From an uncultured Gammaproteobacteria bacterium (GTDB lineage: Bacteria > Patescibacteriota > Microgenomatia > UBA12405 > JAHJSD01): DNA of 64,000 bases. Shown in pieces: positions 3,254 to 64,000 of the stretch. The position numbers and the translations under genes are program-made. The notes beneath the pieces were generated by a model. The model saw nothing but the letters and a program-made list of their open reading frames with translations, was not told the DNA's origin and made no database searches. Location: positions 183,156 through 247,155 of the forward strand of contig CAYRYE010000002.1 in assembly GCA_964428655.1 (NCBI GenBank), written 5' to 3'. Position 1 is the stretch's first letter, and every line of letters begins with the position of its first letter.

Positions 3254-3329
3254 GCGGGAGTGGCTCAGTTGGTAGAGCATCTCGTTGCCAACGAGAAGGT
3301 CGCGGGTTCGAGCCCCGTCTCCCGCTCCA
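3254..3329 (+). tRNA. tRNA-Gly (anticodon GCC)
   Basis: Cloverleaf folded by hand: acceptor GCGGGAG/CTCCCGC, D-arm GCTC-AGTTGGTA-GAGC, anticodon stem TCTCG/CGAGA with loop TTGCCAA (anticodon GCC), T-arm GCGGG-TTCGAGC-CCCGT, discriminator T, encoded CCA. Confidence 0.9.
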
Positions 3330-21918: not shown

Positions 21919-22191
21919 ATGTATACTATCTTGATGGCTGAAAATACTAATAACTATTGTTGGGTAAGAGGAGATGCTTCAAGAATTGACAATGATGACG
22001 AAATTAAAAATGCTCTAAGAGATTGTCCAAATCGAACAAGTCCAAGAGGCCCTTATAGACCTAGTTATGTTTGTCTGCAGCCTGCAAACAGGCGCACAGA
22101 CAAGTGTCCTTGGAATAAAATCATAACGAAAAGAAGACAACCACAAACTCCTATTAAAGTTAGAGCCGCGTCCATTTCCTCCCATCGCTAA
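21919..22191 (+). CDS. small Cys-containing hypothetical protein (90 aa)
   Basis: ORF in the divergent intergenic region upstream of leuS; 4 Cys; weak support. Confidence 0.3.
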   Translation: MYTILMAENTNNYCWVRGDASRIDNDDEIKNALRDCPNRTSPRGPYRPSYVCLQPANRRTDKCPWNKIITKRRQPQTPIKVRAASISSHR

Positions 22192-26840: not shown

Positions 26841-26847
26841 AACTAAA

Positions 26848-27840: not shown

Positions 27841-27920
27841 CTATTCCCTGGTGTTGATAAAGCTTGCAAGACCAGAAAAATAATGCCAAAATGAAGCAAT
27901 AGATAAGTAGATAATTAATA

Positions 27921-29354: not shown

Positions 29355-29377
29355 AAATTCAAAACTCAAAAATCAAA

Positions 29378-30328: not shown

Positions 30329-30352
30329 ACCCCTATTGTGGTAAATTAAAAT

Positions 30353-31255
30353 ATGAATTTGTTTCGACTCTTTATCCTTTTACCGCTGTTTTTCTTCCAT
30401 GCTCCTAATTCATTTGCCAAAGTCAAATGGCAAAAAACAACCATCAACCGCTTTGACTTGCCGGCCGAGTTCAGCGTCGCTGTTTCAGCCTACATCGGCG
30501 GCTATCTTTTTGACATTGAGGGCCTAACCTCACCTTGGGCTAAGGTGGAGTTTTATTCAACTGAAGGCAATATCCAAGTAACTACTATTGCCGACAACGA
30601 GGGTGTTTTTCTATTTCGCTCGGTTTTAGCTCCTTTGCAAACGGGTGATTTTTGCTTTATCAGCTACGACACCGATAGTATTGCCAATAATCCTTTGTGC
30701 TTTCCTCCTCCCCCACCTCAAACTAAAACAACTATTTCAGGTATTGTGCTCTCGCCAACAATTTCACTTGATAAAGAGATTTTTCGTCAAAACGAATTAG
30801 TTGAAGCCCGAGGCCGCGCTTTTCCCAATGCTCAGATCAAAACTTTCCTTTTTGAACAAGAGCGCTCTTGGTGGCAAGAAATCATCGACGTTATCATTCC
30901 CGCCGCCTTTGCCCGGGAAGGGCCAAAACTAACTATCACCGCCAGCAAGGAAGGCTTTTTCTCCTTTAATCTACCAACCCAAAAATCAACCCGCTGGAGG
31001 TTCTTTGTTGGCCCTCAGCTCACTGATGAAACACCAACCGCCCAAAGTAATACTATTGAATTTTTAGCCTTATCTTGGTGGCAATGGCTGCTTTTAAAGA
31101 TCCTTCGCTTTGTCTATCACGTTCTGCGCTGGCTTTTCAGCTTTTTATTCCGCTGGGAGACAATAATTGCATTATTAATTACCTCAATCAGTATAATCTG
31201 TTTTAAACTAAAATCTAAGAACGCCCCAAAGCAGAGCAAACACGCTACGAGGTAA
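30353..31255 (+). CDS. secreted/membrane-anchored hypothetical protein (300 aa)
   Basis: Signal peptide, Pro-rich linker CFPPPPPQTKTT, two C-terminal hydrophobic segments. Confidence 0.55.
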   Translation: MNLFRLFILLPLFFFHAPNSFAKVKWQKTTINRFDLPAEFSVAVSAYIGGYLFDIEGLTSPWAKVEFYSTEGNIQVTTIADNEGVFLFRSVLAPLQTGDFCFISYDTDSIANNPLCFPPPPPQTKTTISGIVLSPTISLDKEIFRQNELVEARGRAFPNAQIKTFLFEQERSWWQEIIDVIIPAAFAREGPKLTITASKEGFFSFNLPTQKSTRWRFFVGPQLTDETPTAQSNTIEFLALSWWQWLLLKILRFVYHVLRWLFSFLFRWETIIALLITSISIICFKLKSKNAPKQSKHATR

Positions 31256-49300: not shown

Positions 49301-51916
49301 GGCGACGGCACCTACGGCGTGTATGGCTACGGCACCAGCCAGGGTGTGTATGGCACCACCTCCACTGGACAAGGTGTACGTGGCAATAGCACTAGCGGCT
49401 GGGCAGGATATTTTGATCAAAAAACTTATGTTGCTGATTACCTACGAGCTGATGGTGGATTAACCACTAACAGTACCGATCCAGGAGCAGGTAATATTAG
49501 GGCGTCTGGAAGCTTAACATTAACAGCTGCTAATCCCTATATCTACAGTGGCAGTTCATATATTATAATTCCAAATGGTCTTTTTGTCAGTGGAGGCACT
49601 CCTTATTTTACTAATGACATTAAGGCTAGGGGAGGCATTAGTGATGATGGTGGAAATTTATATTTAAATGATACTGTTGTTGTCAATGGTAATGATGGTG
49701 GTACTAATTTATATATTAACGCTATTGATGCAAACGAAGGTGGCCAAATAGCACTGCAACCTGGATCAAGTTATTCAAGTGATGTGTTTTACCTTGACAA
49801 TGTTCAGGGATTCCCTCGCATCTATCAAAGTAGTAGCAATACTAGAACAATGCAGATTGCCAATTACGGTACTGGAATACTTAACTTGAATGTAGAAGGA
49901 ACATCGACCGACTTTGCTGAAATGATACATACTGATGAAAGGTTGGAAAGTGGAGATCTAGTTGTGAGTCACGAAAGTCAAGAAGTAACAGTGAGATTAG
50001 CAGATGATGCCTACTCGCCAAATATTACCGGCATCATTTCAACTAGACCGGGAATTTTATTATCAAGTCTTGACAAGGCTAATGATACCAGTACTTCAAT
50101 TGGTACAGTAGGTAAGGCAGTAATATTTGATAAATACGCCCCGCTGACTGTTTCTGGGAGAGTACCACTCAAGGTTAGTTCTTCAAGTGGGTATATCTCT
50201 AATAGTGATCCTGTTACTTCGTCTTCACTTGCTGGTTTTGGTATGAAAGCCACTCAAGCCGGCCCTATTGTTGGAAAGGCACTGGAGTCAACAGGTCACT
50301 GGAATGATACAAATTGTCCAGCAATTGCTTCTGTTGACTCTATCACATGGCCTGAAGATGATGGAAATAATCCTGCGAAACCCTGCTTTAAACTTCCTGA
50401 TGGTACTTACATAGGCAAGATAATAGTACTTGTGAATCTCAGCTGGTATGACCCGGATGTTTATCTAACAGATACGGGAGATTTAAATATTACCCAAAAC
50501 AACAACGGAGATCTTATTTTAAAGAATAAAGATAGTTTAGTTGATAAAATTGGTGCTTTTACAGAACTGGTTGTAGCTAAAGTTAAGGCCGGACTAGTGG
50601 AAACAAAAGAATTAACAGCAGAGAATAAAATCATCTCACCGTTGATTGAAACAGAAGAAATAGTAATTAGTGATCAGGAATTAGTAATTAGTAATCAAGA
50701 GGGAGAGGATTTAATTGAAATCGATAGCGATGGGGCAACAACCCATTTTGGTGATTTGATAGTTGAAGGTGATGCTGGATTCAGCGGCAATGTGGGCATT
50801 GGCCATCTTACAGCAGAAGAAATTGACACGAATACACTTGAAAGCAAAGCGATTAGCACAGATCAAATGCAAATTAACACGGATGCAACCGTTTCCGGCA
50901 CATTGTACGCTGATCAGATTGTGACTAGGAAAGGCACCTTTGGCGAATTGATGGCTGATAAGATTAGCGCTATTAGGGTGGAGTTAGAAGAGTTGCTAGC
51001 TAACAAAATTGCTAATTATGATAGCGGGGTGGAAAAGGATGACACTGGAGCTTTGGATACTGTTACTGGCACTTCCCTTGCTTCTCAGGCTGAGGAATGG
51101 GAGACAGATCCACCGTCCGATTCCTCCACCGCATCCACTCCTGGAGAGTCTGCTGGGTTGTCATCTGCTGGGTTGTCAGATGAAATAATTATCGCCTCCA
51201 GTTTAGTAATTCAGGGAAAAATGACAGTGGAAGAAGCGTTTATTAACAAACATTTGCTAGTCGGCAATATTGCCATTACTAAAAACTCCATTGCTACTTT
51301 GGCTGATACCCTTTACATCCAGCCAAGTGGAACAGGCAAAGTTGATATTTTAGCTGGAATTTTGGTAATTGAGGATAATGGCAGTGTGACGATTAATGGA
51401 GACTTGTTTGTGAATGGCAGTGTAATCGCAGAGGAATATCAAGGAAAGGACGGGGATTTTGCGATTAATTTAGCTGGAGAGTCTGCTAGTGGTTTCGGCA
51501 AATTAATGGTCAAGGGAATTGATAACGAGGTGGTAACCAGCATTGATGCCAGCGGGTCGGCGCAATTCGCCGGAGACTTAATTGCTTCAGGCTCGGCTAC
51601 TTTTGCTAAAGTCAATATTGCTACGGCATCGGCCGAACCAATTATTGCTGGCTCGCAATTTGGCGATTTGGCCACTGACTCAGCCAAACTAAAAACTAAT
51701 GCCACGGCTGGTGAAGGAATAATTCCGACTGGAAAAAAAGAAGTAATTATTTACAGTGATAAATTAACTTCAGAATCGCTGGTTTACATTACTCCAACAA
51801 CAGATACTGAAAATCAGGTGTTGTTTGTCAAGCAAAAAGCAAGCGATCATTTCACTGTGGCCATAAAAGAAGAATTAAACAAAGAAATACGATTCAACTA
51901 TTGGATTATTAACTAA
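40367..51916 (+). CDS. giant cell-surface protein (3849 aa): cytoplasmic integrase-SAM-like N-domain, TM helix, about 21 GNVGIGTTxP-type repeats (tail-fibre-like), Gly-Tyr repeat region, C-terminal conserved domain
   Basis: N-terminus IRHYLETLRVQGKSEATIRRKAIALKKFAEWA (recombinase core-binding-like) then IGIGIGIIGG and TM FGAIAIMTVALGLFIY; GNVGIGTT(G/N/D)P recurs about every 80-100 aa with near-identical DNA core ggcaacgtcgggattgggacgacggggcc; C-terminal 70 aa shared with 51920..53062. Confidence 0.9.
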   Translation: MDLNKLLQLNQIRHYLETLRVQGKSEATIRRKAIALKKFAEWAATKEQSRIGIGIGIIGGTKPKTFKEQVSHKILNTKYQILNTLSSVPAYFKFGAIAIMTVALGLFIYDQFIKKAPEQLAYPSTLTAPSRVLSFQGRLTDDQDTPITDSTNFVFKLWKVEENGTEVDCDGGGDEDCLWESNTCGINPDEDGIFSVRLGATSGSDACGGAIDSSVFTENIGIWLEVTVASETLDPRQPIATSAYALNAETLQGFPPGTGTSNILYIDSSGNIGIGVTSPTLDATSSSGTFAIKGQSLLLQTPNTSDGDIGINPDGEGVLDLIFDGSAPSSSYTSNGIGGFVTATNSNITSGAMYFGEVASVATGYDFIQFMSGSTPTEKFSVDASGHTYIAGNVGIGTTNPNNFKLQVDGNVGPQTDSDYDLGSDTIRWANVYADNLIGTISPGFSEGSVIFADSLGDLTEDNANFFWNDTDDRLGIGTTEPGAKLHTYRNDTIGTWGAMTLSNATALFQDSGVNLYVDGNTLVTSGDLYLGTSTASDIFFGTNDAYTVTFKSGGDVGIGTTEPSALLSVGSTSQFQVNSSGAIAAATGITSSGTITFSDLSTNGPTYVATGVMNSEQYLDMTRGGTDADLSGVAEGGLIYKAASALAGTGALTGMLKGNTASAPSAVTSTADYVTYWSDANTITGEQYLSVSRGGSGIGTFTKGVLLSPGGTTAFTTVAGINNYIPKWSSSYITTTSSIYDDGDVGIGTTGPGQKLTVQDDNSDSIPTDQDLEVGQIQIQNLDASAVFAGLSFRARTTNRAMGLIGLDWASGAGDIFFRIRDGSLTSKEVMRLESTGNVGIGTTDPQALLSVGSTSQFQVNSTGAIAAATGITSSGTITFSGLTANRLVTTTTGGQLTNSITSANVDDSVTNNTGSGLLVFATSPIFTTDITTPQILSSADLTIDPAGENVNLGSGDNLNITASTDLFFGTTSLGEITGPTDSGAYVVGTNDEFSNSDEVNVQGVLDDLDAHIESLETGGSGLWIDDGLYIYPINFTDFVITDAGNVGIGTTGPDSPLEISGSGAQQLKITSTDHISSAVVLERTDNDYYDWRMMNSGGNLFFSESIDEGASWLDNVFFGGDPTYHGRVGIGTTAPDEELTVSIAQNESTLIKVTNSTNDTLAAAGFYFDSATSNGIFAALPSNYTGGGTGAHFADRVGFTAYDTAAGLDVVAIDTNADIRFYTGGLAISNERIRIESGGNVGIGTTGPNAQFEVRGSGLEARLTDDGTGYYADLGVDSSGNLTISTSNGALNLEPTANQNLNITTSGTGDVAVNTNQLYVDSSSGYIGIGTTGPLVKLNVSQDQVTSISQAQFMITGATDTNKRTLIGYNTTNNYGWMGAGTLDSQWDPLVLQPISGNVGIGTTNPGAKLEVAGQVKITGGSPGADKVLTSNVSGLATWETIGGEGVTPDSLDYTEFVDAMTVDDNTSINLYSGTTDVDLRYYNSSSSDELLFLDGSTGYVGIGTTGPGARLDIHNDASTGVPLNVMSRAGSADNGELQIGFINNDGGQSWRMGTASDRNFYITEDDAGGYGTSRLTLEEGGNVGIGTTNPSATLHVAGNTLTTGNTYIGATTGDQYFWSDSAGRIATMADFYVQATSSNTYLYSAITYLGAASGDNILFRANEVYGDSWRISSTTGAYHAGSSTEYVYNRFGSGGTANFASDDASDVYVQDELEVDGSICLGGVCESTFLDFGPWDYNSGANTVHPDSTSYNVGIGTTSAGTAKLAVIGGNVGIGTTGPGYKLDVNAGTDNEITRFISTDDSARILVTDEDTTTYLGSSNGYTYLGGGAGLLAQNLVINTTTGNVGIGTTDPKAELHVMGTSGTIPSLFSGTNLVVSNTEAAGNNTNISILGGAEGDTAIMFGDTADEDAGAVSYDHNTDYMSFRVNAGTKMTIDDSGNVGIGTTGPGMPLHLTKASNDLVEFESTNSWMGLHLTGAAGYDSNIYFKEADTKEMRISWDASENELAFVDETDSAARRMVIEQTGNVGIGTTGPTSLLHLASTSTSTGFTGFNLDWSPGSAATLTGDLFAINIGSNGNADNLFNVLDNSSSLFSVSETQITSALPHQFTSTGDVSIAYDIIFTNQTASYIKSYAPLYIDAGESFESNDLTLSTYNAGDIVFDAGDASGDTGTIKFYDAYVKGATDTTPIAFSDVAADINTFRTNYTDENIIGAFNEVYDAATGSVGGGGPWTRSGTDTYLTNTGDNVGIGTTDPDNKLDISGTLEVGTSTRGALLYSTAADNFRFHTYTNTPNPNIRIGYGNGSGGQDTSSEYIDMNAGEINFINADVGIGIATPDEPLEIYRSNDPTAGTTYLKITNPSSGNWKTGEAATGIRFEKEGKITGYIESAHFRTGSGADHSNEDAGLAFGTRHSHDLDPTTKMVIDNYGNVGIGTTTPGAKLDILSTGEQLRTSYNSSNYTQFETDSDGDLNITLNGGGSDKRVIISNDLQINGGDIVDSSGTTRISIGNVISLYPDSSNLVRVINTSGSPASRYLPLRLTRSYSSFSTSYEVGIQFDIQENTTVMPAGFISSKITDSTNEYGKMFLATSDGTGDTDWEIGITIDHLGNVGIGTTNPTEKLHVVGDGYFTADVGIGTAVNATYDLSVGSHIRTVSGNIYSGGTQGFVFGSSTSEGEYIYRSGNDIRTYAGGANVLTVDGDNGRVGIGTTGPEMTLDVYGGVGTGIIVGDHAVRQPYIRRSLHSPSDVTYSFYGYTDAGMYMPEANKLAFAVNGGERITLDSGGNVGIGTTSPLGQLDVVGGVTRTGTAPTTPSFYVTGTLSAGTAGPAANNIEFRHDNQTQGIGFGYQTIYATGTTTNQPLNLLSRGSSPITLNAYGYSTGNVGIGTAGPLSKLSVGGAGISNTGVYGYGTSYGVYGGGGTYGVYGSGTGYGVRAMGGTYGLYGSGTSYGAYGAGDTSGVYGDGGTYGVYGDGTTGVRGDGTYGVYGYGTSQGVYGTTSTGQGVRGNSTSGWAGYFDQKTYVADYLRADGGLTTNSTDPGAGNIRASGSLTLTAANPYIYSGSSYIIIPNGLFVSGGTPYFTNDIKARGGISDDGGNLYLNDTVVVNGNDGGTNLYINAIDANEGGQIALQPGSSYSSDVFYLDNVQGFPRIYQSSSNTRTMQIANYGTGILNLNVEGTSTDFAEMIHTDERLESGDLVVSHESQEVTVRLADDAYSPNITGIISTRPGILLSSLDKANDTSTSIGTVGKAVIFDKYAPLTVSGRVPLKVSSSSGYISNSDPVTSSSLAGFGMKATQAGPIVGKALESTGHWNDTNCPAIASVDSITWPEDDGNNPAKPCFKLPDGTYIGKIIVLVNLSWYDPDVYLTDTGDLNITQNNNGDLILKNKDSLVDKIGAFTELVVAKVKAGLVETKELTAENKIISPLIETEEIVISDQELVISNQEGEDLIEIDSDGATTHFGDLIVEGDAGFSGNVGIGHLTAEEIDTNTLESKAISTDQMQINTDATVSGTLYADQIVTRKGTFGELMADKISAIRVELEELLANKIANYDSGVEKDDTGALDTVTGTSLASQAEEWETDPPSDSSTASTPGESAGLSSAGLSDEIIIASSLVIQGKMTVEEAFINKHLLVGNIAITKNSIATLADTLYIQPSGTGKVDILAGILVIEDNGSVTINGDLFVNGSVIAEEYQGKDGDFAINLAGESASGFGKLMVKGIDNEVVTSIDASGSAQFAGDLIASGSATFAKVNIATASAEPIIAGSQFGDLATDSAKLKTNATAGEGIIPTGKKEVIIYSDKLTSESLVYITPTTDTENQVLFVKQKASDHFTVAIKEELNKEIRFNYWIIN
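41536..49035 (+). repeat. intragenic array of about 21 near-identical 25-30 nt cores (ggcaacgtcgggattgggacgacgggg) within about 250-300 bp protein repeats
   Basis: Direct reading: cores at about 41540, 42590, 42880, 43500, 43740, 44090, 44350, 44560, 44870, 45115, 45690, 45900, 46190, 46440, 47100, 47340, 47650, 48190, 48470, 48710, 49010. Confidence 0.85.
49060..49400 (+). repeat. GC-rich tandem repeat (ggcacctacggcgtgtatggc-type, 21-24 nt period) encoding (G-x-Y-G)n Gly/Tyr-rich segment
   Basis: Protein segment GVYGYGTSYGVYGGGGTYGVYGSGTGYGVRAMGGTYGLYGSGTSYGAYG...; produces artefactual ORFs on both strands (49020..49463, 49040..49420). Confidence 0.85.
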
Positions 51917-53077: not shown

Positions 53078-55066
53078 TTAGTCAACTGACTCGGGTGATT
53101 CAATCGGCTCAATAGGCTCGCCCTCCAAATCAAAAGGAGTTGGCGTAAGAGTCTCCATTTCCTCTAACGGCGGTGCGGCTTCTTCAGGAAGCTGGATCGG
53201 TTCTTCAAGTTGAGGTGTTGGTAAAGGCCCAGGCTGAGTCAATTCCTTCGGCGCTTCCTCTTTTTCGCTGGCGGCTGCTTCCTGACCCAGTTCTTTTTTC
53301 CACTCTTCTAATTCTTGTATTGATTTTTCATAATCAGGAGTATCTCTTGCCACCAAATTGACTGCTTGTTGAAGCTTGACTACTGCGTCTTCTAGTTTTT
53401 CCTGTTGTTTTAGAACCCAAGCCCAATTATACCAAGCATTGGCAAAATCAACCTTCAGACTAACAGCAATTTCAAATTGTTTAGCGGCCTCATCAAGCTG
53501 GTCCATACCGTAAAGCAAACCGCCATAATCAACTCGTAAACGAGGATTAAGAGAATCTAAAGCAATCGCCTGCTGATAAGTAGTCACTACCCATTGATCA
53601 GCTCCTTCGGCTACGTTAACTAACTGGCGGTAGATCTGGGCCAGGTTTTCCCAACCAATTACATTCCTTGGCTCTAAAGCCACGGCTGTTTTAGCTTCTG
53701 AAACTGATTGATCTAAAAGTTGAGTTATTTGGCGATGCTCATCATCGGTCAAATCCTCCCCTTTATTGGCTAAACTATTGGCCAAGGCTAGATTAGTTTG
53801 AGCAAAAGAAATTCGGTAGCGTGACAAAAAGCGGTTTTGATTAATAGCGGCTAGCTGAAAATTGTAAGTATCCCCGCCTCTATTCTCAGAGGCCGCTTTG
53901 ATTGCTTGGTAAAAAGTAAATTCTGACCGGAAACCACGATAGAGAAAATAACCACTTACCATAGTAAAAACAATTAGCAAACTACCAAATATTATCGGTG
54001 CGCTGTCTTCTCCTTTTTCACCAACAACTAAAGAAAAACTCCGTTCTTTGCCCTTGCCTCGGACTAAAGCTAAAGACAAAAAGAGAATAAAGACAGTAAT
54101 TAAATTGCCAGGAAAGAGCAGTAAAGCCAACCATGTCAACCCTAGCAGCCGACCAGTCTCATTTTTCTTTGCCGAACGAATGGTGCGGAAAAATAGAGAA
54201 AGCAAAATAATTAAACCAACCAGGCCTGTCTCAGTCCAAAGCTGTAAGAACCAACTATGAGGGGCGCCAAACCTGAAATTCCAATTTTCACCTCGGTTAA
54301 ACTCGATAGGACGATAAAGATTAAAAGCAGTATTAAAATTACCCGGGCCAACACCAAGGATTGGGCTCCTTTTAAAGGACTCAACAGCAATTGCCCAGGA
54401 GGAAAACCAATCTAAAAAAACTACCTTAATTTTGAAGGTTTGATAAAGAGCTGTTCCTGCCCCTACTAAAATAATAATTCCCAAAAGGGCCAGCCACCAC
54501 TTTTTTAACTCGCCTTTTCCCTTTACCTCCTTTACAATCAAGCCAATAATTAAAGCAGCCATTAAAACTAATAATTGGGCAAGAATCACTGGCGAGCCTA
54601 AGGCAAGACGGCTAAGTTGATTAGCCCAAAAACCAGTAGAAGAAACAGGCAAGACAAATAAAGTTACGGAAAACAAACTAGTAATCGCCGCTGAAATTAG
54701 CAAGGCCATTAAAGTTTTCTTCCTTTTTCCTGTTGATTTAAGTTGGCTTAAAGAGAAGTAAAAAAGAGTTAGAACAATAACTGTGCCTAAACCTAATGGC
54801 TGAAGTAAAGAGCGAACTTTTGTTCCAGAAGGCAAGAAAAACCAGGAAACTAAATTGGACAACAAAAAGAGAAAAACTAAAAAGTCCAACGGCGCAATTG
54901 AATAAACAAGTTTCTTGGCCTTTAACAGGCGGATCCCGGCAATAACCAAAACTACTAAAACCGCTATTGCTAAAAAGAAATTTTTGCCATCAAAAACTGA
55001 ATCAGTAATCCAAGGAAAAAAAAACAGGGGAAAAAGGAAAACAATTAATGTGATTAGGATTAACAT
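53078..55066 (-). CDS. polytopic membrane protein (Wzy/O-antigen-ligase-like) with C-terminal TPR domain and acidic Pro/Glu tail
   Basis: About 12 TM helices in N-terminal 400 aa; C-terminal TPR-like repeats (AVALEPRNVIGWENLAQIYRQL, AIALDSLNPRLRVDYGGLLYGMDQLDEAAKQFEIAV, ANAWYNWAWVLKQQEKLEDAVVKLQQAV). Confidence 0.55.
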   Translation of the reverse strand: MLILITLIVFLFPLFFFPWITDSVFDGKNFFLAIAVLVVLVIAGIRLLKAKKLVYSIAPLDFLVFLFLLSNLVSWFFLPSGTKVRSLLQPLGLGTVIVLTLFYFSLSQLKSTGKRKKTLMALLISAAITSLFSVTLFVLPVSSTGFWANQLSRLALGSPVILAQLLVLMAALIIGLIVKEVKGKGELKKWWLALLGIIILVGAGTALYQTFKIKVVFLDWFSSWAIAVESFKRSPILGVGPGNFNTAFNLYRPIEFNRGENWNFRFGAPHSWFLQLWTETGLVGLIILLSLFFRTIRSAKKNETGRLLGLTWLALLLFPGNLITVFILFLSLALVRGKGKERSFSLVVGEKGEDSAPIIFGSLLIVFTMVSGYFLYRGFRSEFTFYQAIKAASENRGGDTYNFQLAAINQNRFLSRYRISFAQTNLALANSLANKGEDLTDDEHRQITQLLDQSVSEAKTAVALEPRNVIGWENLAQIYRQLVNVAEGADQWVVTTYQQAIALDSLNPRLRVDYGGLLYGMDQLDEAAKQFEIAVSLKVDFANAWYNWAWVLKQQEKLEDAVVKLQQAVNLVARDTPDYEKSIQELEEWKKELGQEAAASEKEEAPKELTQPGPLPTPQLEEPIQLPEEAAPPLEEMETLTPTPFDLEGEPIEPIESPESVD

Positions 55067-55115
55067 AGTTATTACTATGTATATTCTCCATGATCAATTG
55101 TCAAGAGTCAAGAGG

Positions 55116-56528
55116 CTACTCCTCTTCCCCATACTTCGAAGAAAGAGTTTGGAGAAGAAGAACAATGTCTCTTCCATTAACAACACCATTGAAATCAACA
55201 TCAGCTACGGCTAGTTCTTCTGCATATTGATCAGCAAAAAGTCTTACTTTCATGTTGGTGAAATCAACACCGTTAACTATGCCGTCTTGAGCCATGTCTT
55301 TCTCTGGTTCTGGTAAATCACCAGGCTCAAGAGGAAGGCCAGTGAAATCAAAAGTATTTTCACCGGCATTAAGAGTTATTTTTCCTTCGCCAAGACAGCG
55401 TTCTGTTTGTTTATCTTCACAGAGCTTTCTGGAAAGGTGTTTAGGGCCTTTAATATAAATGGTGTAATTGTTACCAGGAGAAACTCCACTGAGAACTACC
55501 CTGCCTTTGAAGGCAGCTCCTTGATCTGGTTCTAATTGAACATCAGTAAATTGAGCAATTTGTTGAAATTCTTTTTTAATTTTGACTGAGACCTTGGGCA
55601 TTTCCTTAACACTGCTGCTGTCTAAAACACCAGTAAAGGTGACTTTGAAGTTAAGAATGGGAGTACCTGGTTGGGAAAGAAAAGCGGAAGTAGGGATGGG
55701 AGTGTTGACGACTGTTGGCGTTTCTGTTGGTGTGCGAATTGGAGCTCCACTACATTGGCCGGTGGCTGAATCACAGCCATTTGAACAACTGATTGTATTG
55801 GTCCATTGCCCGTTAACACACTCTTGAGATTTAGTATTGTTAACAATACATCTGGAGCCGGAAGTACACTCAGGCGTGGGGGTACCAGTAGGCACGGGTG
55901 TTAGAACTCCTGCTGGCGGCGTTGGCGTACTGGTTGGTGTCGGAGTACTGGTGGTTGGAACAGTAAAATTATAGGTAATCCCAATCTCATTATCGTTGTT
56001 TTGATTCTTTAATTCTATTTCTCTGTCAGCGCCTGTTGTTTCACCAACAACTTGATGTCGAGGATAGGATTTGTCTAGTTTGACTTGAGCAGTGCCATTG
56101 TTCCTGACTCTGAAATTAAGTTTAATTAGCGGCGCATTGATACTCAAGGTTCCAGTCATTCCTCCAGTGGTGGAAATAGCACTGATATTAACGGCGCCTT
56201 GGTTTTGATCGACTTGTTTTTGAATTACGGTGTTAAAAGCAGAGTGAATACTAACATCATTGCTAGAAGCAAGTTCTAATTTGTCTTGAGAATAAGTAAT
56301 CTTAATAGTAAAACCAGTCATTTTGCTGCTACCCAAATCGCCAATTAAATAAACTGGCATATTATCGCCAGCGCCTTTACTTCCTGCATCAGTAGGCAGA
56401 AACCAGACTTTGGCAGTGGTATAAGCAGCTCCTTTTCTTGTCTCCTGTCTTTGTCTGACTAAAATCAAACCTCCGATTAAGGCAAGAAGAAGAATTAAGA
56501 ATGGTAAAAATTTTAATAGTTTTTTCAT
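55116..56528 (-). CDS. secreted protein with N-terminal beta-sandwich (cohesin-like?) domain, PT linkers, Cys-rich module and C-terminal dockerin-like repeat pair
   Basis: Signal peptide; TPTPTSTPTPP linkers; CTSGSRCIVNNTKSQECVNGQWTNTISCSNGCDSATGQCSG; C-terminal DGIVNGVDFTNMKV and DVDFNGVVNGRDIVLLLQTL match the dockerin Ca-binding loop D-x-D/N-x-N/D-G-x-V-N-x-x-D plus helix. Confidence 0.65.
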   Translation of the reverse strand: MKKLLKFLPFLILLLALIGGLILVRQRQETRKGAAYTTAKVWFLPTDAGSKGAGDNMPVYLIGDLGSSKMTGFTIKITYSQDKLELASSNDVSIHSAFNTVIQKQVDQNQGAVNISAISTTGGMTGTLSINAPLIKLNFRVRNNGTAQVKLDKSYPRHQVVGETTGADREIELKNQNNDNEIGITYNFTVPTTSTPTPTSTPTPPAGVLTPVPTGTPTPECTSGSRCIVNNTKSQECVNGQWTNTISCSNGCDSATGQCSGAPIRTPTETPTVVNTPIPTSAFLSQPGTPILNFKVTFTGVLDSSSVKEMPKVSVKIKKEFQQIAQFTDVQLEPDQGAAFKGRVVLSGVSPGNNYTIYIKGPKHLSRKLCEDKQTERCLGEGKITLNAGENTFDFTGLPLEPGDLPEPEKDMAQDGIVNGVDFTNMKVRLFADQYAEELAVADVDFNGVVNGRDIVLLLQTLSSKYGEEE

Positions 56529-56533
56529 TTATT

Positions 56534-57232
56534 TTAAGGTGGCGGTGGATTAAACTCTTTAACCGCATCACCCCCAGGGGCTGCCGGTGTGTTGGTTGGG
56601 AGAACCGGTCCTGCGGGTGTATTAGTTGGGCCCCCTATAACCGGGGGTGTACTGGTTGGGAGAACCGGTCCTGCCGGTGTATTGGTTGGCACTGGAAAAT
56701 CCGGTACACAACAACAATCCCTTCTTGTGCCATAAGTCCCTAAAGGGACAAAACAATCTTCTGTATCTCCTATGTTAATTTCCCCAGCCTTGCAAGTTTC
56801 TAATCCAGGGTAAACAGCAGCTTCATCACAATACCCCGAAGAATAACCTTGGCTAACACATTTTGAATTGCACCCGCCTGCTTCCCTTGTTGGCTGTGGC
56901 CCTGGTTCCCTTGTTGGTTGTGGAGTTAAGGCGAGCTTGTAATTCTCCAGCCAATAAGTAAAATCAATTAAATCAACTCTACCACTGCAATCAATATCAC
57001 TCCTGGATCGAGTGTCACATGAAGCATTTCCAGAAAAATCCTCTTTTTGAACATCATCTAAGCTTTCCCCCAAAACAAAACCCGACTCTTTATACTTTTG
57101 TTCAAAGGCTAAATTTTGCTTTTTCTCTTCTTGAAGGTAAAAAGCTTTTACTCCTAAGATGGGCAAACAAATTAAAACACTCCCTAAAAAAACTAAACTC
57201 ACTAAAAATCTCCAGTCAGTTTGTCTAACCAT
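56534..57232 (-). CDS. secreted dockerin-like/Cys-rich protein with PT-rich repeats (232 aa)
   Basis: Signal anchor; CDTRSRSDIDCSGRVDLIDFTYWLENY (dockerin-like loop plus helix with flanking Cys); 8-Cys module; tandem PTNTPAGPVLPT repeats encoded by about 40-nt DNA repeats at 56570-56700. Confidence 0.6.
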   Translation of the reverse strand: MVRQTDWRFLVSLVFLGSVLICLPILGVKAFYLQEEKKQNLAFEQKYKESGFVLGESLDDVQKEDFSGNASCDTRSRSDIDCSGRVDLIDFTYWLENYKLALTPQPTREPGPQPTREAGGCNSKCVSQGYSSGYCDEAAVYPGLETCKAGEINIGDTEDCFVPLGTYGTRRDCCCVPDFPVPTNTPAGPVLPTSTPPVIGGPTNTPAGPVLPTNTPAAPGGDAVKEFNPPPP

Positions 57233-57311
57233 ACATAATCATTCTGAAATAGTTTTTATTGGTTGTCAAGAAGTAATCGCAACGATATTACTTCTCAATT
57301 AAAGTCAACTC

Positions 57312-57337
57312 CGCGCCGCCGGCAAAGCCTTTGGCGA
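57312..57337 (+). repeat. 26-nt GC-rich motif GCGCCGCCGGCAAAGCCTTTGGCGAC (copy 2), intergenic between EEP-dockerin gene and Cys-rich dockerin gene
   Basis: See 21846..21871. Confidence 0.7.
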
Positions 57338-57386
57338 CACACGATCAGTGTTGCCAAACTTATCATTTTTCATCTGTTAAAAATAA

Positions 57387-58940
57387 TCAAAACGCTTTTC
57401 CTCTGATAATTTCCTGGCGATCAACCTTCCGATAACTCTCCAACCAGATATCAAAGTCAATTAAATCGACAGTGTGGTTAGGTTTGTCTTGTTCCTGGCA
57501 ATTAAAGTCAACTTTGGTTTTGTCTGATTGGGAAACAAATTGGCTGTTTAATATCTTTTGATAGACTTCAAGCCATAAAGAAAAGTCAATTAAATCAACC
57601 TTGCCGTCACAATCAGCATCACCCGGAGAACAGGAAGAACAGAAACGAATGGGGGTAGAAGTATTAGTTGGTCTGGGAGTATTAATAGCTGTTGGCCTTG
57701 GAGTGCTGGTGGGACGAGGGGTGGGAGTGGGGGTTTCAAGATAAGGTAAAATCCTGATCCAATCAATCTCCACCTTGGCGCCGATAGCAGAATTCCTGGT
57801 AATGGGGTCTATTCTCCAGAAATTAACCATACCACGCCAATTGGAATCTCTGCCAACAGGAATAGAGTATTCGTGCCAGCGATTGTCGGCAAAAACAGTA
57901 AAAGCTGTCAAATAAAAATTCACCCCTTTGTACCAATAAATATAGCCAAGTTGGGTGCCTCCCTTGCTAATCTTCATTCTTATCTTAATAGTTTGATTTT
58001 CATTTACATAAAAACTAAAATCTTTTGGTGAAAAAACATAGGGGTCAGTTCCAGTGATATCAAAGTTCAAAATACCATTACGAGAAGAGAGATTATTGGT
58101 TGAGCTGCTTTCATCCCAAAGCCACCAGCCTTCAGTGTTACCATCAGGCAAAAAGTCCCACTGGATTGCGCTAACAGGAGGAGTTCCATTGTAAAATTCA
58201 CCAATAACAGGATAGTGGTCAGATTTCTCAAATCCATGATCAATAATCACTTCTAGAGGAACAAAATTAAAAGGTGGTCTATTTTTAAACATAATGTGAT
58301 CTATCTTGCCAGTTTTTTGAATAGTAGTGTAGCGACTCGATGTCATCTTTAGAGCCACCTGATAGCCATCAGTATAGCCCTCTATCTTAAAACGAGGATC
58401 AATCGCGTCTAAGTTAAAATCGCCTAAAACAAAAACTGTTTCGCTTTCATATTCCCTTAGTTTAGGAACTAGTTCATTTATCAAAGTTGAAACATTAAGG
58501 TGTGGCAAAGGGTGATAGTTAAAAAATCTTATTGATTTTGAATTAATCTCAATTCTAAAGGTCTGAAGCTTGGAACCTTCACTAAAATTAAAAACTTCAT
58601 ACTCTCTAATAGGATAGCGGCTTAGAACTACTTGATAAATATCGCCTATTGCCCCATACCTTCTCCTGTAAACGTGTCTTCCATGCATCGGATATCCAAT
58701 GCTAGAAAGATGATTTAGAAGTTCTTGAAACTTATTGCTATCACCGCTAGATTCTTGGATACCGACAATATCAATTTTTTTAGCCTTGATATAATCAGCC
58801 AAAACCCTCTCTGTGGCCCCATCTAGGCCTAGGTGAATATTGTAGGTTAGAAGTCTAATTCGTTCCCCTTCAGCAAAAAGTTGTTTAGGGAAATAAAAAG
58901 AAAGGGCCAAACAAATTAAAAAAACTATTTTTTTTCTCAT
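57387..58940 (-). CDS. secreted endonuclease/exonuclease/phosphatase (EEP)-family hydrolase fused to beta-sandwich domain, PT linker and C-terminal Cys-flanked dockerin-like module
   Basis: EEP-like N-terminal domain (LLTYNIHLG...GIQE...VLGDFN...SDHYPV); TPTPTPRPTSTPRPT linker; CSSCSPGDADCDGKVDLIDFSLWLEVY and HTVDLIDFDIWLESY. Confidence 0.75.
   Translation of the reverse strand: MRKKIVFLICLALSFYFPKQLFAEGERIRLLTYNIHLGLDGATERVLADYIKAKKIDIVGIQESSGDSNKFQELLNHLSSIGYPMHGRHVYRRRYGAIGDIYQVVLSRYPIREYEVFNFSEGSKLQTFRIEINSKSIRFFNYHPLPHLNVSTLINELVPKLREYESETVFVLGDFNLDAIDPRFKIEGYTDGYQVALKMTSSRYTTIQKTGKIDHIMFKNRPPFNFVPLEVIIDHGFEKSDHYPVIGEFYNGTPPVSAIQWDFLPDGNTEGWWLWDESSSTNNLSSRNGILNFDITGTDPYVFSPKDFSFYVNENQTIKIRMKISKGGTQLGYIYWYKGVNFYLTAFTVFADNRWHEYSIPVGRDSNWRGMVNFWRIDPITRNSAIGAKVEIDWIRILPYLETPTPTPRPTSTPRPTAINTPRPTNTSTPIRFCSSCSPGDADCDGKVDLIDFSLWLEVYQKILNSQFVSQSDKTKVDFNCQEQDKPNHTVDLIDFDIWLESYRKVDRQEIIRGKAF
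57431..57729 (-). repeat. 299-bp segment identical to 61634..61932 (encodes PT linker plus dockerin-like module)
   Basis: Base-by-base comparison of the two 3' gene ends shows identity over about 299 nt, diverging on both sides. Confidence 0.85.
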
Positions 58941-59026
58941 CTGACTACTATTATATTACAAATATATCACACCAACGCCAAATAACGGAGATAGCTAAGA
59001 GGATAATTTCTCTACATTATGGCAGA

Positions 59027-60148
59027 TTATTGAAGGACTGTTAAGGGGTTTAACTTAGCACCGTTTTTGAATACTTCAAAGTGCAAGTGGATTCCTGTTG
59101 ATCTTCCCGTTGAACCCATCTGGCCAATAGCTTGACCAGAAGAAACTGCTTGACCGGCTTTAACTTGAATTCTGGCTAAATGACCATAAAGAGTTTGGTA
59201 GCCATTGCCATGATCAACAACAATGTGATTACCATAACCAACTCGGCTATGAATCACACTGGCCACCTTACCTCCAGCGGCCGCTACGACACTGGGAGCG
59301 TTTTTATTAGCGATATCAATGGCTCGATGATACCAGGTATAACGTTGGGAGACCTTTCCTGAAGTGGGCCAGATAAATGTTCCTTCGCCGGCAGAAACAG
59401 TAACTTCTTTTTGAGCAATATAGGTGGGAGGCGCGACCGGTTTTACTTTAGGCATAATTCCATCGGGAATAATTAGGCTTTGACCAACTGCCAAAGCAAA
59501 AGTCTCATCATTGGCAAAAGTATTAAAAGGAAAATCAACAATTGGCTGAGCATTGGCTTGATACTTCTTAGCAATAGAATAGATTGTCTCTCCTCTTTGG
59601 ACCTTATGAATAATTCCCGTTACTGGAGGAACCTTCAATCTGTCACCAGGTTTAATTTTGGTAACTGACTTAATTTTATTAGCCCAAATAACAGTGTCTA
59701 TGGAGACACCGAATTTATTGGCAATTGAAGAAACAGTGTCTCCTTGACGAACAACATATTCGACAATCTCGCCCCGAGGATGGGCGGATTCAATGGTAGC
59801 CACATTTTGGGCCTCCTCAGAATAAGCGGCCAGAGCAGAACTAGGCGAATAGGTATCCCAATCAAAGTCCTGCTTTCTTAAACTTGCTTCAATCTCGGGA
59901 GTCAAGGCAATGCCTGAGAACAGGAAAAGAGCCAGCCAGAAATGAGCAAATGGTTGTGACCAGCGACCCCTCTGGCGGTACAAAAGAGCAGAAAAAAAAC
60001 TTTTAACCGCCTCAAAGCTATAAAAAAGCCTCAAAACAAGGCTTTTAAAAAAGAAAAAGTAAGCGAGAAAAAAGTCACGCCAGTCGTGGAGACAAGCTTT
60101 GGATAGTTTTCTAAACTTCTTAAACACTTGAAATTTTCTCTTATTCAC
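59027..60148 (-). CDS. LysM-domain M23 family metallopeptidase (cell-wall hydrolase)
   Basis: N-terminal TM; two LysM repeats (VRQGDTVSSIANKFGVSIDTVIWANKI, VQRGETIYSIAKKYQANAQPIV); C-terminal M23 core GYGNHIVVDHGNGYQTLYGHLARIQVKAGQAV...GSTGRSTGIHLHFEV. Confidence 0.85.
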   Translation of the reverse strand: MNKRKFQVFKKFRKLSKACLHDWRDFFLAYFFFFKSLVLRLFYSFEAVKSFFSALLYRQRGRWSQPFAHFWLALFLFSGIALTPEIEASLRKQDFDWDTYSPSSALAAYSEEAQNVATIESAHPRGEIVEYVVRQGDTVSSIANKFGVSIDTVIWANKIKSVTKIKPGDRLKVPPVTGIIHKVQRGETIYSIAKKYQANAQPIVDFPFNTFANDETFALAVGQSLIIPDGIMPKVKPVAPPTYIAQKEVTVSAGEGTFIWPTSGKVSQRYTWYHRAIDIANKNAPSVVAAAGGKVASVIHSRVGYGNHIVVDHGNGYQTLYGHLARIQVKAGQAVSSGQAIGQMGSTGRSTGIHLHFEVFKNGAKLNPLTVLQ

Positions 60149-61397
60149 CTTTCGCCACTACTTTTTTCAAAAATTCCTTATTATTTTTGGTCTTTTTTAA
60201 CTGCTCGATGAAAAGCTCAGTCCGTTCTTTTTCACCCAAAAGGTCAATTATTCTTCTCATCCTAGCAATCAGCTTCATCTTTTTTTCCCCAAACAATAAT
60301 TCCTCTTTACGAGTGCCTGATTTTTGGATATCAAAGGCCGGGAATATCCTTCTTTCAGCCAAACCTCGACTAAGGTGAAGCTCCATATTGCCAGTACCCT
60401 TGAATTCCTCATAAATTAACTCGTCCATCCGGCTGCCAGTATCAATTAGGGTGGTGCCAATAATAGTCAGCGACCCGCCATCTTCAATATTCCGAGCTGC
60501 TCCTAAAAACTGCTTGGCCGGATATAAAGCAGTGGGGTCGAAACCACCAGATAAAGTTCTGCCTGAAGTAGGCGTTGCCAAATTATAGGCTCGAGCCAAC
60601 CTGGTGATCGAGTCCAGAATGATGAAAACATGCCTGCCTTGTTCAACCAATCTTTTGGCTCGCTCCAAAGCAATCTCGGCAGCTCTAACCTGACAAATAG
60701 GAGATTCATCAAAATTAGAAGCAATCACTTCACCCTTAACACTCCGAGTAATATCAGTTACCTCCTCCGGACGCTCGCCAATCAAAGCCGCCATCAAATG
60801 GATATCGGGATGATTTTCGGAAACACCGGCGGCAATATCCTTTAAGAGCCAGGTTTTGCCTGCCTTTGGCGGTGAAACAATCAAACCCCGCTGACCAAAA
60901 CCAATTGGAGCAATTAAATCTATCATTCGGGTAGAAACAACCTCTGATTTAGTCTCTAGCTCAATCTGGGGTTGAGGATAAATTGGGCTAAGTTGATCAA
61001 ACCCAGGTTTATCAGCTACTTTTTCAATGGGGATGTCATTGATTTTTTCCACCTTTAATAAGCCAAAGTAGCGCTCATTTTCTTTTGGCTGCCGCACCTG
61101 CCCTCCTACCATATCTCCTTTCCGAAGCTTAAAACGACGAATCTGAGAATTAGAAATATAGATATCGTCGTGGGAAGGAATAAAATTTGGCCTTAAAAAA
61201 CCATGCCCTTCGGGCATAACAGCCAAAACTCCCTCGTGGAAATTAGTGGGAACATCGGCATCAGGAATAATCCGGCCATCAACTTCTAAAAGCTGGCTAG
61301 GTGTCGCTATCACTCCTTCAACTTTTGATTTCTCCAAATCATCGGCAGTAACAACCACATCAGAAGATGGCTTAGGCTTAGTAGTTCTTGGAACCAT
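60141..61397 (-). CDS. rho: transcription termination factor Rho
   Basis: 418 aa; N-terminal RNA-binding OB (RFKLRKGDMVGGQVR), Walker A GQRGLIVSPPKAGKT, conserved Q- and R-loops; 8-nt overlap with downstream M23 gene. Confidence 0.9.
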   Translation of the reverse strand: MVPRTTKPKPSSDVVVTADDLEKSKVEGVIATPSQLLEVDGRIIPDADVPTNFHEGVLAVMPEGHGFLRPNFIPSHDDIYISNSQIRRFKLRKGDMVGGQVRQPKENERYFGLLKVEKINDIPIEKVADKPGFDQLSPIYPQPQIELETKSEVVSTRMIDLIAPIGFGQRGLIVSPPKAGKTWLLKDIAAGVSENHPDIHLMAALIGERPEEVTDITRSVKGEVIASNFDESPICQVRAAEIALERAKRLVEQGRHVFIILDSITRLARAYNLATPTSGRTLSGGFDPTALYPAKQFLGAARNIEDGGSLTIIGTTLIDTGSRMDELIYEEFKGTGNMELHLSRGLAERRIFPAFDIQKSGTRKEELLFGEKKMKLIARMRRIIDLLGEKERTELFIEQLKKTKNNKEFLKKVVAKGE

Positions 61398-61619
61398 ATA
61401 ATCTCCTTTTATTAATAATTAATAACACAACAAAGAGTTAAAGAGATGATAAAAAGATGTCACAATGAAAAAATGGGCACTAATTAATTCAAATCCATGA
61501 AAACAAATTACTTTTCTATTTTATAGAATCTGCGAGGCCTTATCTAAACTGGGCTATTTATAGCAAATCAAACCTCTCTTGTCAAGCGCTACAACCTGTC
61601 AACCTTTAAAATTACAGAA

Positions 61620-63470
61620 TCAAGGCGTCCTTTGATAACTCTCCAACCAGATATCAAAGTCAATTAAATCGACAGTGTGGTTAGGTTTGTCTTGTTCCTG
61701 GCAATTAAAGTCAACTTTGGTTTTGTCTGATTGGGAAACAAATTGGCTGTTTAATATCTTTTGATAGACTTCAAGCCATAAAGAAAAGTCAATTAAATCA
61801 ACCTTGCCGTCACAATCAGCATCACCCGGAGAACAGGAAGAACAGAAACGAATGGGGGTAGAAGTATTAGTTGGTCTGGGAGTATTAATAGCTGTTGGCC
61901 TTGGAGTGCTGGTGGGACGAGGGGTGGGAGTGAAAGTTGGAGTAATTACTAATTGAGAAAGTTGAGGATAATGGCCAAATTGATAAACAAAATTCCAGAT
62001 TCTGCCCTTACTGAAATTCTTATTCCCATACCTTGTAATCTGATTGCCATCAGTATCGATAAAGGGAGTAATTATACCATTAGCAACATCTTTAACAAAA
62101 GCATTTTTGTGAAATAAACAAGCCTCCAGGCTGATCACGCTTGGATCCTGCTCAAGGCTATTAAATGAGTTAGGCGCGGGAGGCCTGGTAAAACTGGTAC
62201 TTGAGGGGGTAAAGAAGTCAGTAAAGGTAGCACTCATAAACTGGACATTATTCAATCCCTCCTTATCAAAACCATTAGTGTCATTGGAGACTCTAAATAT
62301 AAGGTGTCTGTTATTAAAGCTTCTGTTATTTGCAAAAGCGAGCGACGAATATCTACCATCATTAAGCAAATCTTTTATTTCCCATCTCATATCACCAGCC
62401 TTTGTAAACATTTTTCCTTCATCAAGTGGCCGATAGTATGCTGGAGGAATTGTGGTTCTGCCTCTTTCTGTTTTATAAATATGGGAAAAACCCAGAAGGT
62501 CTCGAAAGTTTCCGTCTCGAGGATTAGATTGATATACATCTGATGGCTCTTTTATCCTGTCTATTTGAGTAACACTACTATTAGTTAAATAAACTGATCG
62601 CTCATCCGGAGTTCCCCAAGTAAACCTATAATAAGCATTGGCTTTGTGGGCAAGATACTTTAGAGGGGTAAAGTAATCATTAACCTCACAAGAATTCCAG
62701 ATTACCGCCACTTCATTTATAGGCCCCATTGCCTCGAGAACCGGATTAACTTCTATGAGGGGATACTCATTGTTAATGCGGTAAGAAATAATGTAATTAA
62801 TCTTGTTTCCATTAATCGTTTCTTTGTTAAGCAAAGCATTTCTCATTGTGCCGGAAAACCAATAAATATCAGCAGTGCCTATACCCGTTGGCATATTTTT
62901 TTGAGGAAAATAATTTCCGCTCAAAGGGGCACCATTAGTAGAAAAGTTAGCAAAATAAGCATTTCCTGTATCTTCTCCCGAGCCTATCTGAACAGCCAAA
63001 ACACAGCCATCGCTTTCTCTATAACCGCTCCTGCCAAGTTCATTAACTACTCCTGCCACTCTATCACCAAATTTGAAATTTGGATTGCTGTTGTTTCCGT
63101 TTATGGTCCAAAAACCCTTCATCATGCCCCCACCACTGCCTGTTTTATTTACCTGCCTCACTGTTGTAACAGTGTTCTTTATCCAAGTGAAATAATGTTT
63201 AGTCAAAATAAGAAGATCGTGCCGGCCAAAATGTTCCAGGGGTTGACTGGGATGAGAAATAATGGAATTTTCTGCAGTGCGAGCAATCTGATTAACAATA
63301 GAAGAAGACGCCGCCGTGTAGTTTCTCACTAGTAATGCGCTATGCACCCCCTGAACTGACACTTCAGTAAACGCTTCTATTTTTGCAGGAAAACCAACCA
63401 GAAACAATACTAAAAAGCCTAAAATAGAAGATAACAAGAGAAAATTTTTACTCTGATGTGTTTTTTTCAT
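61620..63470 (-). CDS. secreted protein of unknown function (616 aa) with C-terminal PT linker and dockerin-like module identical to that of the EEP hydrolase
   Basis: Signal peptide; large N-terminal domain without recognisable motifs; last about 100 aa identical to C-terminal region of 57387..58940 product. Confidence 0.7.
   Translation of the reverse strand: MKKTHQSKNFLLLSSILGFLVLFLVGFPAKIEAFTEVSVQGVHSALLVRNYTAASSSIVNQIARTAENSIISHPSQPLEHFGRHDLLILTKHYFTWIKNTVTTVRQVNKTGSGGGMMKGFWTINGNNSNPNFKFGDRVAGVVNELGRSGYRESDGCVLAVQIGSGEDTGNAYFANFSTNGAPLSGNYFPQKNMPTGIGTADIYWFSGTMRNALLNKETINGNKINYIISYRINNEYPLIEVNPVLEAMGPINEVAVIWNSCEVNDYFTPLKYLAHKANAYYRFTWGTPDERSVYLTNSSVTQIDRIKEPSDVYQSNPRDGNFRDLLGFSHIYKTERGRTTIPPAYYRPLDEGKMFTKAGDMRWEIKDLLNDGRYSSLAFANNRSFNNRHLIFRVSNDTNGFDKEGLNNVQFMSATFTDFFTPSSTSFTRPPAPNSFNSLEQDPSVISLEACLFHKNAFVKDVANGIITPFIDTDGNQITRYGNKNFSKGRIWNFVYQFGHYPQLSQLVITPTFTPTPRPTSTPRPTAINTPRPTNTSTPIRFCSSCSPGDADCDGKVDLIDFSLWLEVYQKILNSQFVSQSDKTKVDFNCQEQDKPNHTVDLIDFDIWLESYQRTP
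61634..61932 (-). repeat. second copy of the 299-bp dockerin-module duplication
   Basis: See 57431..57729. Confidence 0.85.
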
Positions 63471-63571
63471 AACGATTAAGTTTATCTTATTCCTGCATCA
63501 TTTTTATTTAAGAATAGCATAATCATTATAATGCTTTCTCCTAACGAAGAAAATGTTACAATATCACTAAT

Positions 63572-64000
63572 ATGCAGTTCCTGCTCATTAAAGTTCCGAA
63601 GGGCAACGAGTACACCATTGAACAAACTTATGCTCTGCTTTCAAATTTAGTAGAGGCGAAAAAATTCAGTTTATTTTCGAGAAAAAAAACAATCATTTAC
63701 TCTTTGGAGATCATTTGTCTTGAACAAAAAATTTACTTTGTTGTTGGCGTACCTGAAACAAAGGTTGAGTTTTTCAAAGCCCAGCTTTTAGCTCAATTTA
63801 AGGAAGCAATGATTGAAAAATTCGATAGTTTACCGGTGTTGCGTACCTCAGCAACACCCGGTGTTGCCAATTTTACGCAATTAATTTTGGCTAGGCCGGA
63901 TTATTTGGCGTTGAAAACCACAGAAGAGTTTAAAGAAACCGACCCTTTGTCATCAGTTTTAGCAACTATGGCTAAAGCGGCTGACCCTAAACAATTTTTT
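63572..64000 (+). CDS. hypothetical protein, 5' partial in window (143 codons, runs off the 3' edge)
   Basis: Manual translation MQFLLIKVPKGNEYTIEQTYALLSNLVEAKKFSLFSRKKT... stays open to position 64000. Confidence 0.4.
   Translation, partial: MQFLLIKVPKGNEYTIEQTYALLSNLVEAKKFSLFSRKKTIIYSLEIICLEQKIYFVVGVPETKVEFFKAQLLAQFKEAMIEKFDSLPVLRTSATPGVANFTQLILARPDYLALKTTEEFKETDPLSSVLATMAKAADPKQFF

Follow-up and report, generated by a model that had tools for sequence, protein, structure and literature searches.

On the minus strand of the window analysed here (the whole 64-kb stretch of contig CAYRYE010000002.1), two genes for putatively secreted proteins, hereafter gene A and gene B, end in the same 299 nucleotides (nt), which encode a proline/threonine-rich linker and a dockerin-like module. 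Both genes belong to a minus-strand run extending from position 63470 to 53078 that comprises, in this order, gene B, rho, a LysM/M23 peptidase gene, gene A and the genes for a 232-aa (amino acid) protein, a 470-aa protein and a Wzy_C/TPR protein. The genes and repeat copies are arranged as follows.

57387–58940, minus strand: gene A, 517 aa; signal peptide, Exo_endo_phos (EEP) domain, middle domain, linker, dockerin-like module and a 14-aa tail.
61620–63470, minus strand: gene B, 616 aa; signal peptide, 513-aa cargo, linker, dockerin-like module and a 4-aa tail.
57431–57729, minus strand: repeat copy A, 299 nt; linker at about 57651–57729, dockerin-like module at 57432–57650.
61634–61932, minus strand: repeat copy B, 299 nt, identical to copy A; module at 61635–61853.
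59027–61397, minus strand: unique segment between the copies, with rho (60141–61397) and the LysM/M23 peptidase gene (59027–60148).

A repeat search of positions 55000–64000 returned a single long repeat family, namely this pair of direct copies (57431–57729 and 61634–61932), which are 100% identical over 299 nt at a spacing of 4203 nt. Pairwise alignment with 100-nt flanks revealed that identity begins and ends abruptly at either edge of both copies, the flanks being without alignable similarity; an exact match of this length cannot have arisen by chance within 64 kb. Both copies are in frame and lie at the 3' ends of their minus-strand genes, where the tract encodes aa 405–503 of gene A and aa 514–612 of gene B, that is, the Pro/Thr linker TPTPRPTSTPRPTAINTPRPTNTSTP followed by the 73-aa module IRFCSSCSPGDADCDGKVDLIDFSLWLEVYQKILNSQFVSQSDKTKVDFNCQEQDKPNHTVDLIDFDIWLESY, from IRFCSS to WLESY. 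The tract ends 4 codons before the stop of gene B and 14 codons before that of gene A, and the C-terminal ends past it differ, reading RKVDRQEIIRGKAF in gene A and QRTP in gene B, each directly followed by the stop codon. Upstream of the tract, no similarity between the two proteins was detected by BLASTP (best E = 1.3). The first-pass annotation had described 3' ends identical over about 299 nt on two secreted proteins that differ everywhere upstream, and this description is borne out by the alignment, which confirms an exact, in-frame duplication, by the BLASTP result and by the signal-peptide-like N-termini read from both translations.

The EEP domain of gene A spans aa 31–242 (Pfam), and its middle domain is uncharacterised. 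The 513-aa cargo of gene B gave no Pfam match and no homologue except itself among the 5.8 billion proteins searched. A protein identical to the gene A product, P0001, is encoded on a 257,415-nt NCBI contig, which also carries the full 616-aa gene B.

The repeat was further examined on contigs of independent assemblies retrieved by protein look-up, comprising the JGI metagenomes 3300028837, 3300005782 and 3300008516 and the Logan assemblies SRR3095933, SRR3091743, SRR3085416, SRR3091719 and SRR3089646. Aside from the absence of positions 61618–61786 in JGI contig Ga0309839_1005839, the contigs from these other samples match the window at 100% identity throughout their overlaps. Their ends bear on the repeat itself, as a contig halts k−1 nt into a repeat only if the first fully internal k-mer occurs at two places in the read set.

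Logan contig SRR3095933_50116: window positions 57700–61663, ending 30 nt into the upstream edge of copy A and the downstream edge of copy B (k = 31).
JGI contig Ga0111033_1286687 (3300008516): window positions 57611–61752, ending 119 nt into both edges.
Logan contigs of SRR3095933, SRR3085416 and SRR3091719: start at 57460 (57431 + 29).
JGI contig of 3300005782: starts at 57549 (57431 + 118).

Contig ends k−1 nt into the repeat are seen at A upstream, A downstream and B downstream, three of its four edges, from which we conclude that these samples contain the repeat with the same three edges. The fourth edge, 61932/61933 (B upstream), is crossed by Ga0309839_1005839 and is only read through, with no break there. 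The copies are identical to each other over at least positions 1–119 and 181–299 of the repeat, the identity of the central ~60 nt (positions 120–180) deriving partly, and that of ~10 nt wholly, from the window's own assembly. The 16 nt at the downstream junction of gene B (61618–61633) are found nowhere in gene A and this junction could therefore not have been constructed from A, while two direct copies around one unique segment with rho and the M23 peptidase gene allow only one linear order. A separate observation concerns the two contigs of 3300028837, both of which reach exactly 144 nt into the repeat from opposite sides and leave an 11-nt gap, a pattern that does not follow the simple k−1 rule.

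The module encoded by the tract is assigned to a divergent dockerin subfamily and is not a member by the Pfam threshold. Its sole relevant Pfam match is Dockerin_1 (PF00404); against a cut-off of 22.9 bits, the two full-length proteins score 14.4 and 14.7 bits and the module taken alone 18.9 bits. A word-indexed homologue search with the 78-aa module as query found nothing, and no relative was found when the module was compared with genome contigs. HMMER, run exhaustively against 1.84 billion representatives, yielded a module family of 144 clusters at E ≤ 0.001, in which the closest non-self member is 65% identical and no third protein is recorded with an identical module. In almost every full-length match the module ends 0–10 residues from the C-terminus, and the cargo of 50 members includes Peptidase_S8 subtilases (four), EEP hydrolases (two), GH26, CBM96, a GxGYxYP glycosidase, LamG and a Cohesin-like domain; as in dockerins, the module is thus placed terminally on secreted proteins of varied catalytic type. 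Dockerin_1 is matched at E ≤ 0.01 by 13 of the 44 aligned family modules (best E 5.1e-10), and a family profile searched against the PDB retrieved 19 chains, all but one of which are dockerin modules or dockerin-bearing enzymes or scaffoldins (best E 3.4e-5). The AlphaFold model of the module, with a predicted local distance difference test score (pLDDT) of 91.5 and a predicted template modelling score of 0.81, contains three helices (residues 23–37, 44–50 and 66–79). The earlier designation of the module as dockerin-like is upheld by this profile search, by the confident model and by the top Foldseek matches, which are dockerins at weak E values.

Dockerins are recognised by two tandem F-hand segments, each with a 12-residue loop bearing D/N at positions 1, 3, 5, 9 and 12 and followed by a helix. 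Segment 1 of the module is complete, with all Ca-ligand positions present in the loop DADCDGKVDLID, which is followed by FSLWLEVY. Segment 2, consisting of DFNCQEQDKPNHTVDLID and FDIWLESY, is conserved at positions 1 and 3 and in its VDLID end but carries an insertion of 5–6 residues, while an uninserted second loop (DFNCDGRIDLTDF) is present in some family members. Both loops have a conserved Cys at position 4, and Cys is also conserved in a CxxC motif at the N-terminus; over the 132 family modules analysed for Cys co-occurrence the N-terminal Cys columns align unreliably, so that disulfide pairing is not inferable from them. Comparison with type I dockerins (PF00404) revealed agreement in the attachment to the C-terminus of secreted hydrolases behind a Pro/Thr linker, in two putative tandem F-hand segments (loop plus helix) within a three-helix model, in the full D-x-D-x-D-G-x-V-D-x-x-D pattern of the first loop, and in the PDB profile (18/19 chains) and top eight fold matches, which point to dockerins or dockerin-bearing proteins. 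In contrast to type I dockerins, the module scores 18.9 bits against a gathering score of 22.9, has the conserved Cys at loop position 4 twice as well as the N-terminal CxxC, and features a longer inter-segment linker with a short helix and the 5–6-residue insertion in the second loop. Its cargo consists of an EEP hydrolase and an orphan protein instead of cellulases, and its host is a Microgenomates-group bacterium of the Candidate Phyla Radiation (CPR).

A candidate binding partner is encoded two genes downstream of gene A, with a further gene for a secreted protein in between.

55116–56528, minus strand: 470-aa candidate receptor/scaffold; N-terminal membrane anchor, cohesin-fold domain, Pro/Thr linkers with a Cys-rich segment, C-terminal Dockerin_1.
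56534–57232, minus strand: 232-aa secreted protein; single F-hand half-module DIDCSGRVDLIDFTYWLENY at about nt 56903–57016, then a Cys-rich domain and Pro/Thr repeats.

The cohesin-fold domain of the 470-aa protein (aa 31–191, nt 55956–56438) has no cohesin-like counterpart elsewhere in the window, and the C-terminal Dockerin_1 of this protein (aa 411–462, nt 55143–55298) is canonical, scoring 24.4 bits and thus above the cut-off. Pfam Cohesin (PF00963) matches the protein below the cut-off (E 0.013), a profile of its family searched against the PDB retrieved cohesins (3l8q at E 1e-4), and its AlphaFold model (pLDDT 75) gave 34 Foldseek matches at E ≤ 0.001, 32 of them cohesins (probability 1.00, best E 9.9e-7, template modelling (TM) score up to 0.70). 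By Pfam, PDB profile and model comparison alike, the N-terminal domain is identified as a cohesin. Homologues from other metagenomes (P0014, P0016 and P0017; E 1e-34 to 1e-44) end in a Cys-type module instead, which links the Cys-type and the canonical dockerin families. Through the divergent dockerin, a cohesin-bearing surface protein would retain the secreted cargo, here a hydrolase of the EEP nuclease/phosphatase type together with an orphan protein, at the cell, and the adjacent membrane-anchored 470-aa cohesin-dockerin protein should be the natural candidate for this role, as family membership and gene neighbourhood suggest. A common receptor for both proteins, as proposed in the first-pass annotation, is plausible and gains support from this candidate cohesin-fold domain. 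Identical modules would guarantee identical specificity, and related, non-identical dockerins would probably suffice as well.

This arrangement resembles that of OlpA and OlpC, the single-cohesin anchoring scaffoldins of Clostridium thermocellum, in that an anchored one-cohesin protein stands beside dockerin-bearing secreted enzymes, and the corresponding PDB entries 3ul4 and 4dh2 are among the Foldseek matches of the 470-aa cohesin domain. It differs in that the anchor is an N-terminal transmembrane segment instead of S-layer homology domains, the cohesin protein has a dockerin of its own at the C-terminus and homologues elsewhere carry the Cys-type module. Dockerin domains in Patescibacteria have been noted earlier, for example in an essential envelope protein of a Saccharibacterium (PMC10633639). 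Apart from the two copies, the window contains a single related segment, the half-module of the 232-aa protein, which is 75% identical to the repeat over 55 nt. Near the 3' end of the same gene, three 30-nt tandem repeats encoding PTNTPAGPVL-like units were observed (56586–56689).

A second allele of gene B was found in one of the JGI metagenomes.

61618–61786, minus strand: segment absent in the gene B allele of JGI 3300028837; 171-nt in-frame deletion with a 2-nt (CT) microhomology.

Contig Ga0309839_1005839 matches the window exactly from position 64000 down to 57586, minus this segment. The deletion junction joins GATTTAATTGAC to TGTAATTTTAAAGGTTGA and may also be written as GATTTAATTGAC joined to TGTAATTTTAAAGG, with CT alone shared. 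Lost are the module from the first dockerin helix onward and the stop codon of gene B, and the resulting product, P0002, comprises 566 aa and ends in GKVDLIDCNFKG. Gene B therefore occurs with and without a functional predicted module in an otherwise identical strain background. Within the tract, both F-hand segments share a 15-nt exact internal repeat, GATTTAATTGACTTT (61647–61673 and 61776–61802, and likewise in copy A), at which slippage could be a route to single-segment modules. As a route to the 171-nt deletion this internal repeat was rejected, the junction lying elsewhere and sharing only 2 nt.

Regarding the origin of the duplication, we favour recent gene conversion between pre-existing paralogous linker-dockerin segments of genes A and B, which we regard as the probable, though by no means certain, course of events. 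Each gene would already have ended in a Pro/Thr linker and a dockerin of one lineage-specific subfamily, and a recent non-reciprocal homologous recombination between these co-oriented copies 4.2 kb apart would have overwritten one of them over 299 nt. As the tract reaches from the linker into the last dockerin helix, each gene would have kept its own C-terminal tail. As expected of a conversion tract, the two loci share an identical stretch that ends abruptly on either side and are otherwise dissimilar. The match of the copies at all synonymous sites, together with that of the low-constraint linker, rules out selection as the cause of their identity and indicates a recent DNA transfer between the two loci. 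This transfer is read as gene conversion because the short tails past the tract differ and look native: the 4-residue tail of gene B fits the family norm of ~2–6 residues after WLxxY, while the 14-residue tail of gene A resembles the 10-residue tail of P0007. P0007, a protein from another genome that likewise combines an EEP domain with the module, is ~25% identical to the gene A product in the EEP domain and 62% in the module, and we conclude that the EEP-dockerin architecture predates the duplication event. In both genes, 2–4 T/P linker residues are found just beyond the tract.

That paralogous modules at this locus are normally diverged follows from the half-module of the 232-aa gene, which is only 75% identical to the repeat. 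The paralogous modules of A and B are 100% identical, whereas the module of A is 62% identical to that of P0007, P0007 being a distant relative in a comparison for which no close sister genome was found. Crossing-over between the direct copies would delete rho, which may explain why conversion-type products alone persist. The first-pass annotation had named recent module shuffling or gene conversion and had the right class of event; gene conversion between pre-existing modules is its more likely form. In general terms, the locus resembles the concerted evolution and gene conversion of bacterial surface-protein modules, with which it shares a sharp-bordered tract in unrelated, nearby and co-oriented genes and tract borders within homologous module sequence. 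It differs in that there are only two copies and a single tract. A full-text literature search returned no paper on gene conversion of dockerins, its one hit being off topic.

Several observations weigh against this interpretation and its functional extension. Among the 5.8 billion proteins there is no gene B orthologue that could attest a prior dockerin on gene B, and the linker and tail remnants outside the tract come to no more than a few residues. The module scores under the Dockerin_1 threshold and its second loop is inserted; the top eight Foldseek matches in the PDB are all dockerins, but weak ones (E 0.36–3.3, TM 0.35–0.61). Judged from its sequence, Ca binding and cohesin binding of the module may depart from those of canonical dockerins. 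Furthermore, the 470-aa cohesin protein bears a different, canonical dockerin.

Among the alternatives, a one-way acquisition, in which one gene, more likely the orphan gene B, had no earlier dockerin and gained the linker and module from its neighbour, survives best, even though we consider it unlikely. Illegitimate or microhomology-mediated recombination would have created such a new fusion, and the upstream edge of the tract does lie in Pro/Thr-coding DNA of low complexity, which readily offers short stretches of homology. The orphan cargo of gene B shows no sign of an ancestral dockerin, and the 171-nt deletion proves that microhomology-mediated rearrangement has taken place at the same site. 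Yet the tract halts just before the tail and stop codon of the donor, remains in frame in the recipient and is followed there by a family-typical tail. Such an in-frame end is expected if recombination was resolved within pre-existing homology and would otherwise be a coincidence, and the few linker residues outside the tract in both genes likewise speak against a new fusion.

Far less probable is an old duplication that was kept identical by selection for one docking specificity, with no recent event. The module is indeed far better conserved than its cargo (62% against ~25% between A and P0007), which indicates strong constraint, but purifying selection at the protein level cannot fix 99 codons at every synonymous site, the low-constraint Pro/Thr linker is identical at every site too, and identity drops abruptly instead of decaying. 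Least credible is an assembly artefact, in which the copies really differ or only one exists and the assembler collapsed or mis-joined them: the repeat exceeds typical k-mers at about twice the read length and all short-read assemblies examined break at it, but all four unique/repeat junctions are present in other-sample contigs, stops at exactly k−1 (30 and 119 nt) mean that, counted inward from three of the four edges, the first k nt must be common to both copies in those read sets, the rho-bearing segment between two direct copies leaves one linear traversal, the 16 nt at 61618–61633 are not derivable from A and one JGI contig holds the first 144–146 nt of both copies, so that misassembly is essentially excluded.

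As for the wider genomic context, the housekeeping neighbours in the window include the arginyl- and leucyl-tRNA synthetases (ArgRS and LeuRS), ComEA/ComEC and rho, and LeuRS finds its closest matches in Candidatus Shapirobacteria (57%), Roizmanbacteria and the Microgenomates group. The locus is part of the chromosome of a Microgenomates-group CPR bacterium for which no close representative was found. A scan for promoters and terminators gave nothing above background that is relevant to the repeat, and Rfam and tRNA scans revealed no RNA element in the repeat region; the only Rfam or ARAGORN match in the window is a tRNA-Gly (GCC) at 3254–3329 on the plus strand. Further features of the window were noted as follows.

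8761–9306 and 9186–10106, both minus strand: a B12-binding/radical SAM protein, then an overlapping 181-aa open reading frame (ORF) in a different frame; the gene may be split.
22160–23245 and 23068–24162, both minus strand: ComEC domains divided between two overlapping ORFs, one with Competence and one with Lactamase_B; a frameshift, sequencing error or pseudogene may account for the split.
25355–31255, plus strand: six successive ORFs of 239–477 aa with no Pfam match at E ≤ 0.001.
32970–40343, plus strand: giant gene for a 2457-aa protein that combines eight Laminin_G_3 domains with DUF2341.
40367–51916, plus strand: adjoining giant gene for a 3849-aa protein lacking any credible Pfam match; next comes a gene for a TPR protein.

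Overall, the duplication is real but of an ordinary event type and adds a well-documented case to known phenomena. Since dockerin modularity, the concerted evolution and shuffling of repeated modules and non-cellulosomal cohesin-dockerin pairs are already established, the gain is local, not conceptual. It consists of a clean, datable example of docking modules that are kept uniform or moved between cargo genes, here in a reduced-genome, probably host-dependent bacterium, with the module-disabling deletion polymorphism and the association of a Cys-bearing dockerin subfamily with anchored single-cohesin proteins in CPR bacteria as modest additions. The locus also offers a compact cluster for a CPR cohesin-dockerin display system, in which an anchored cohesin-dockerin protein is encoded together with two dockerin-tagged secreted proteins, a half-dockerin protein and a LysM/M23 peptidase. 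More speculatively, and with little expectation that it will hold, Cys-bearing dockerins with an extended loop and N-terminally anchored single-cohesin proteins might constitute a distinct surface-display system of the Microgenomates group, in which module recombination, through conversion or the 171-nt deletion, would serve as a switch between tethered and released cargo. If this were true, module recombination would change which cargo stays tethered to the cell and which is released.

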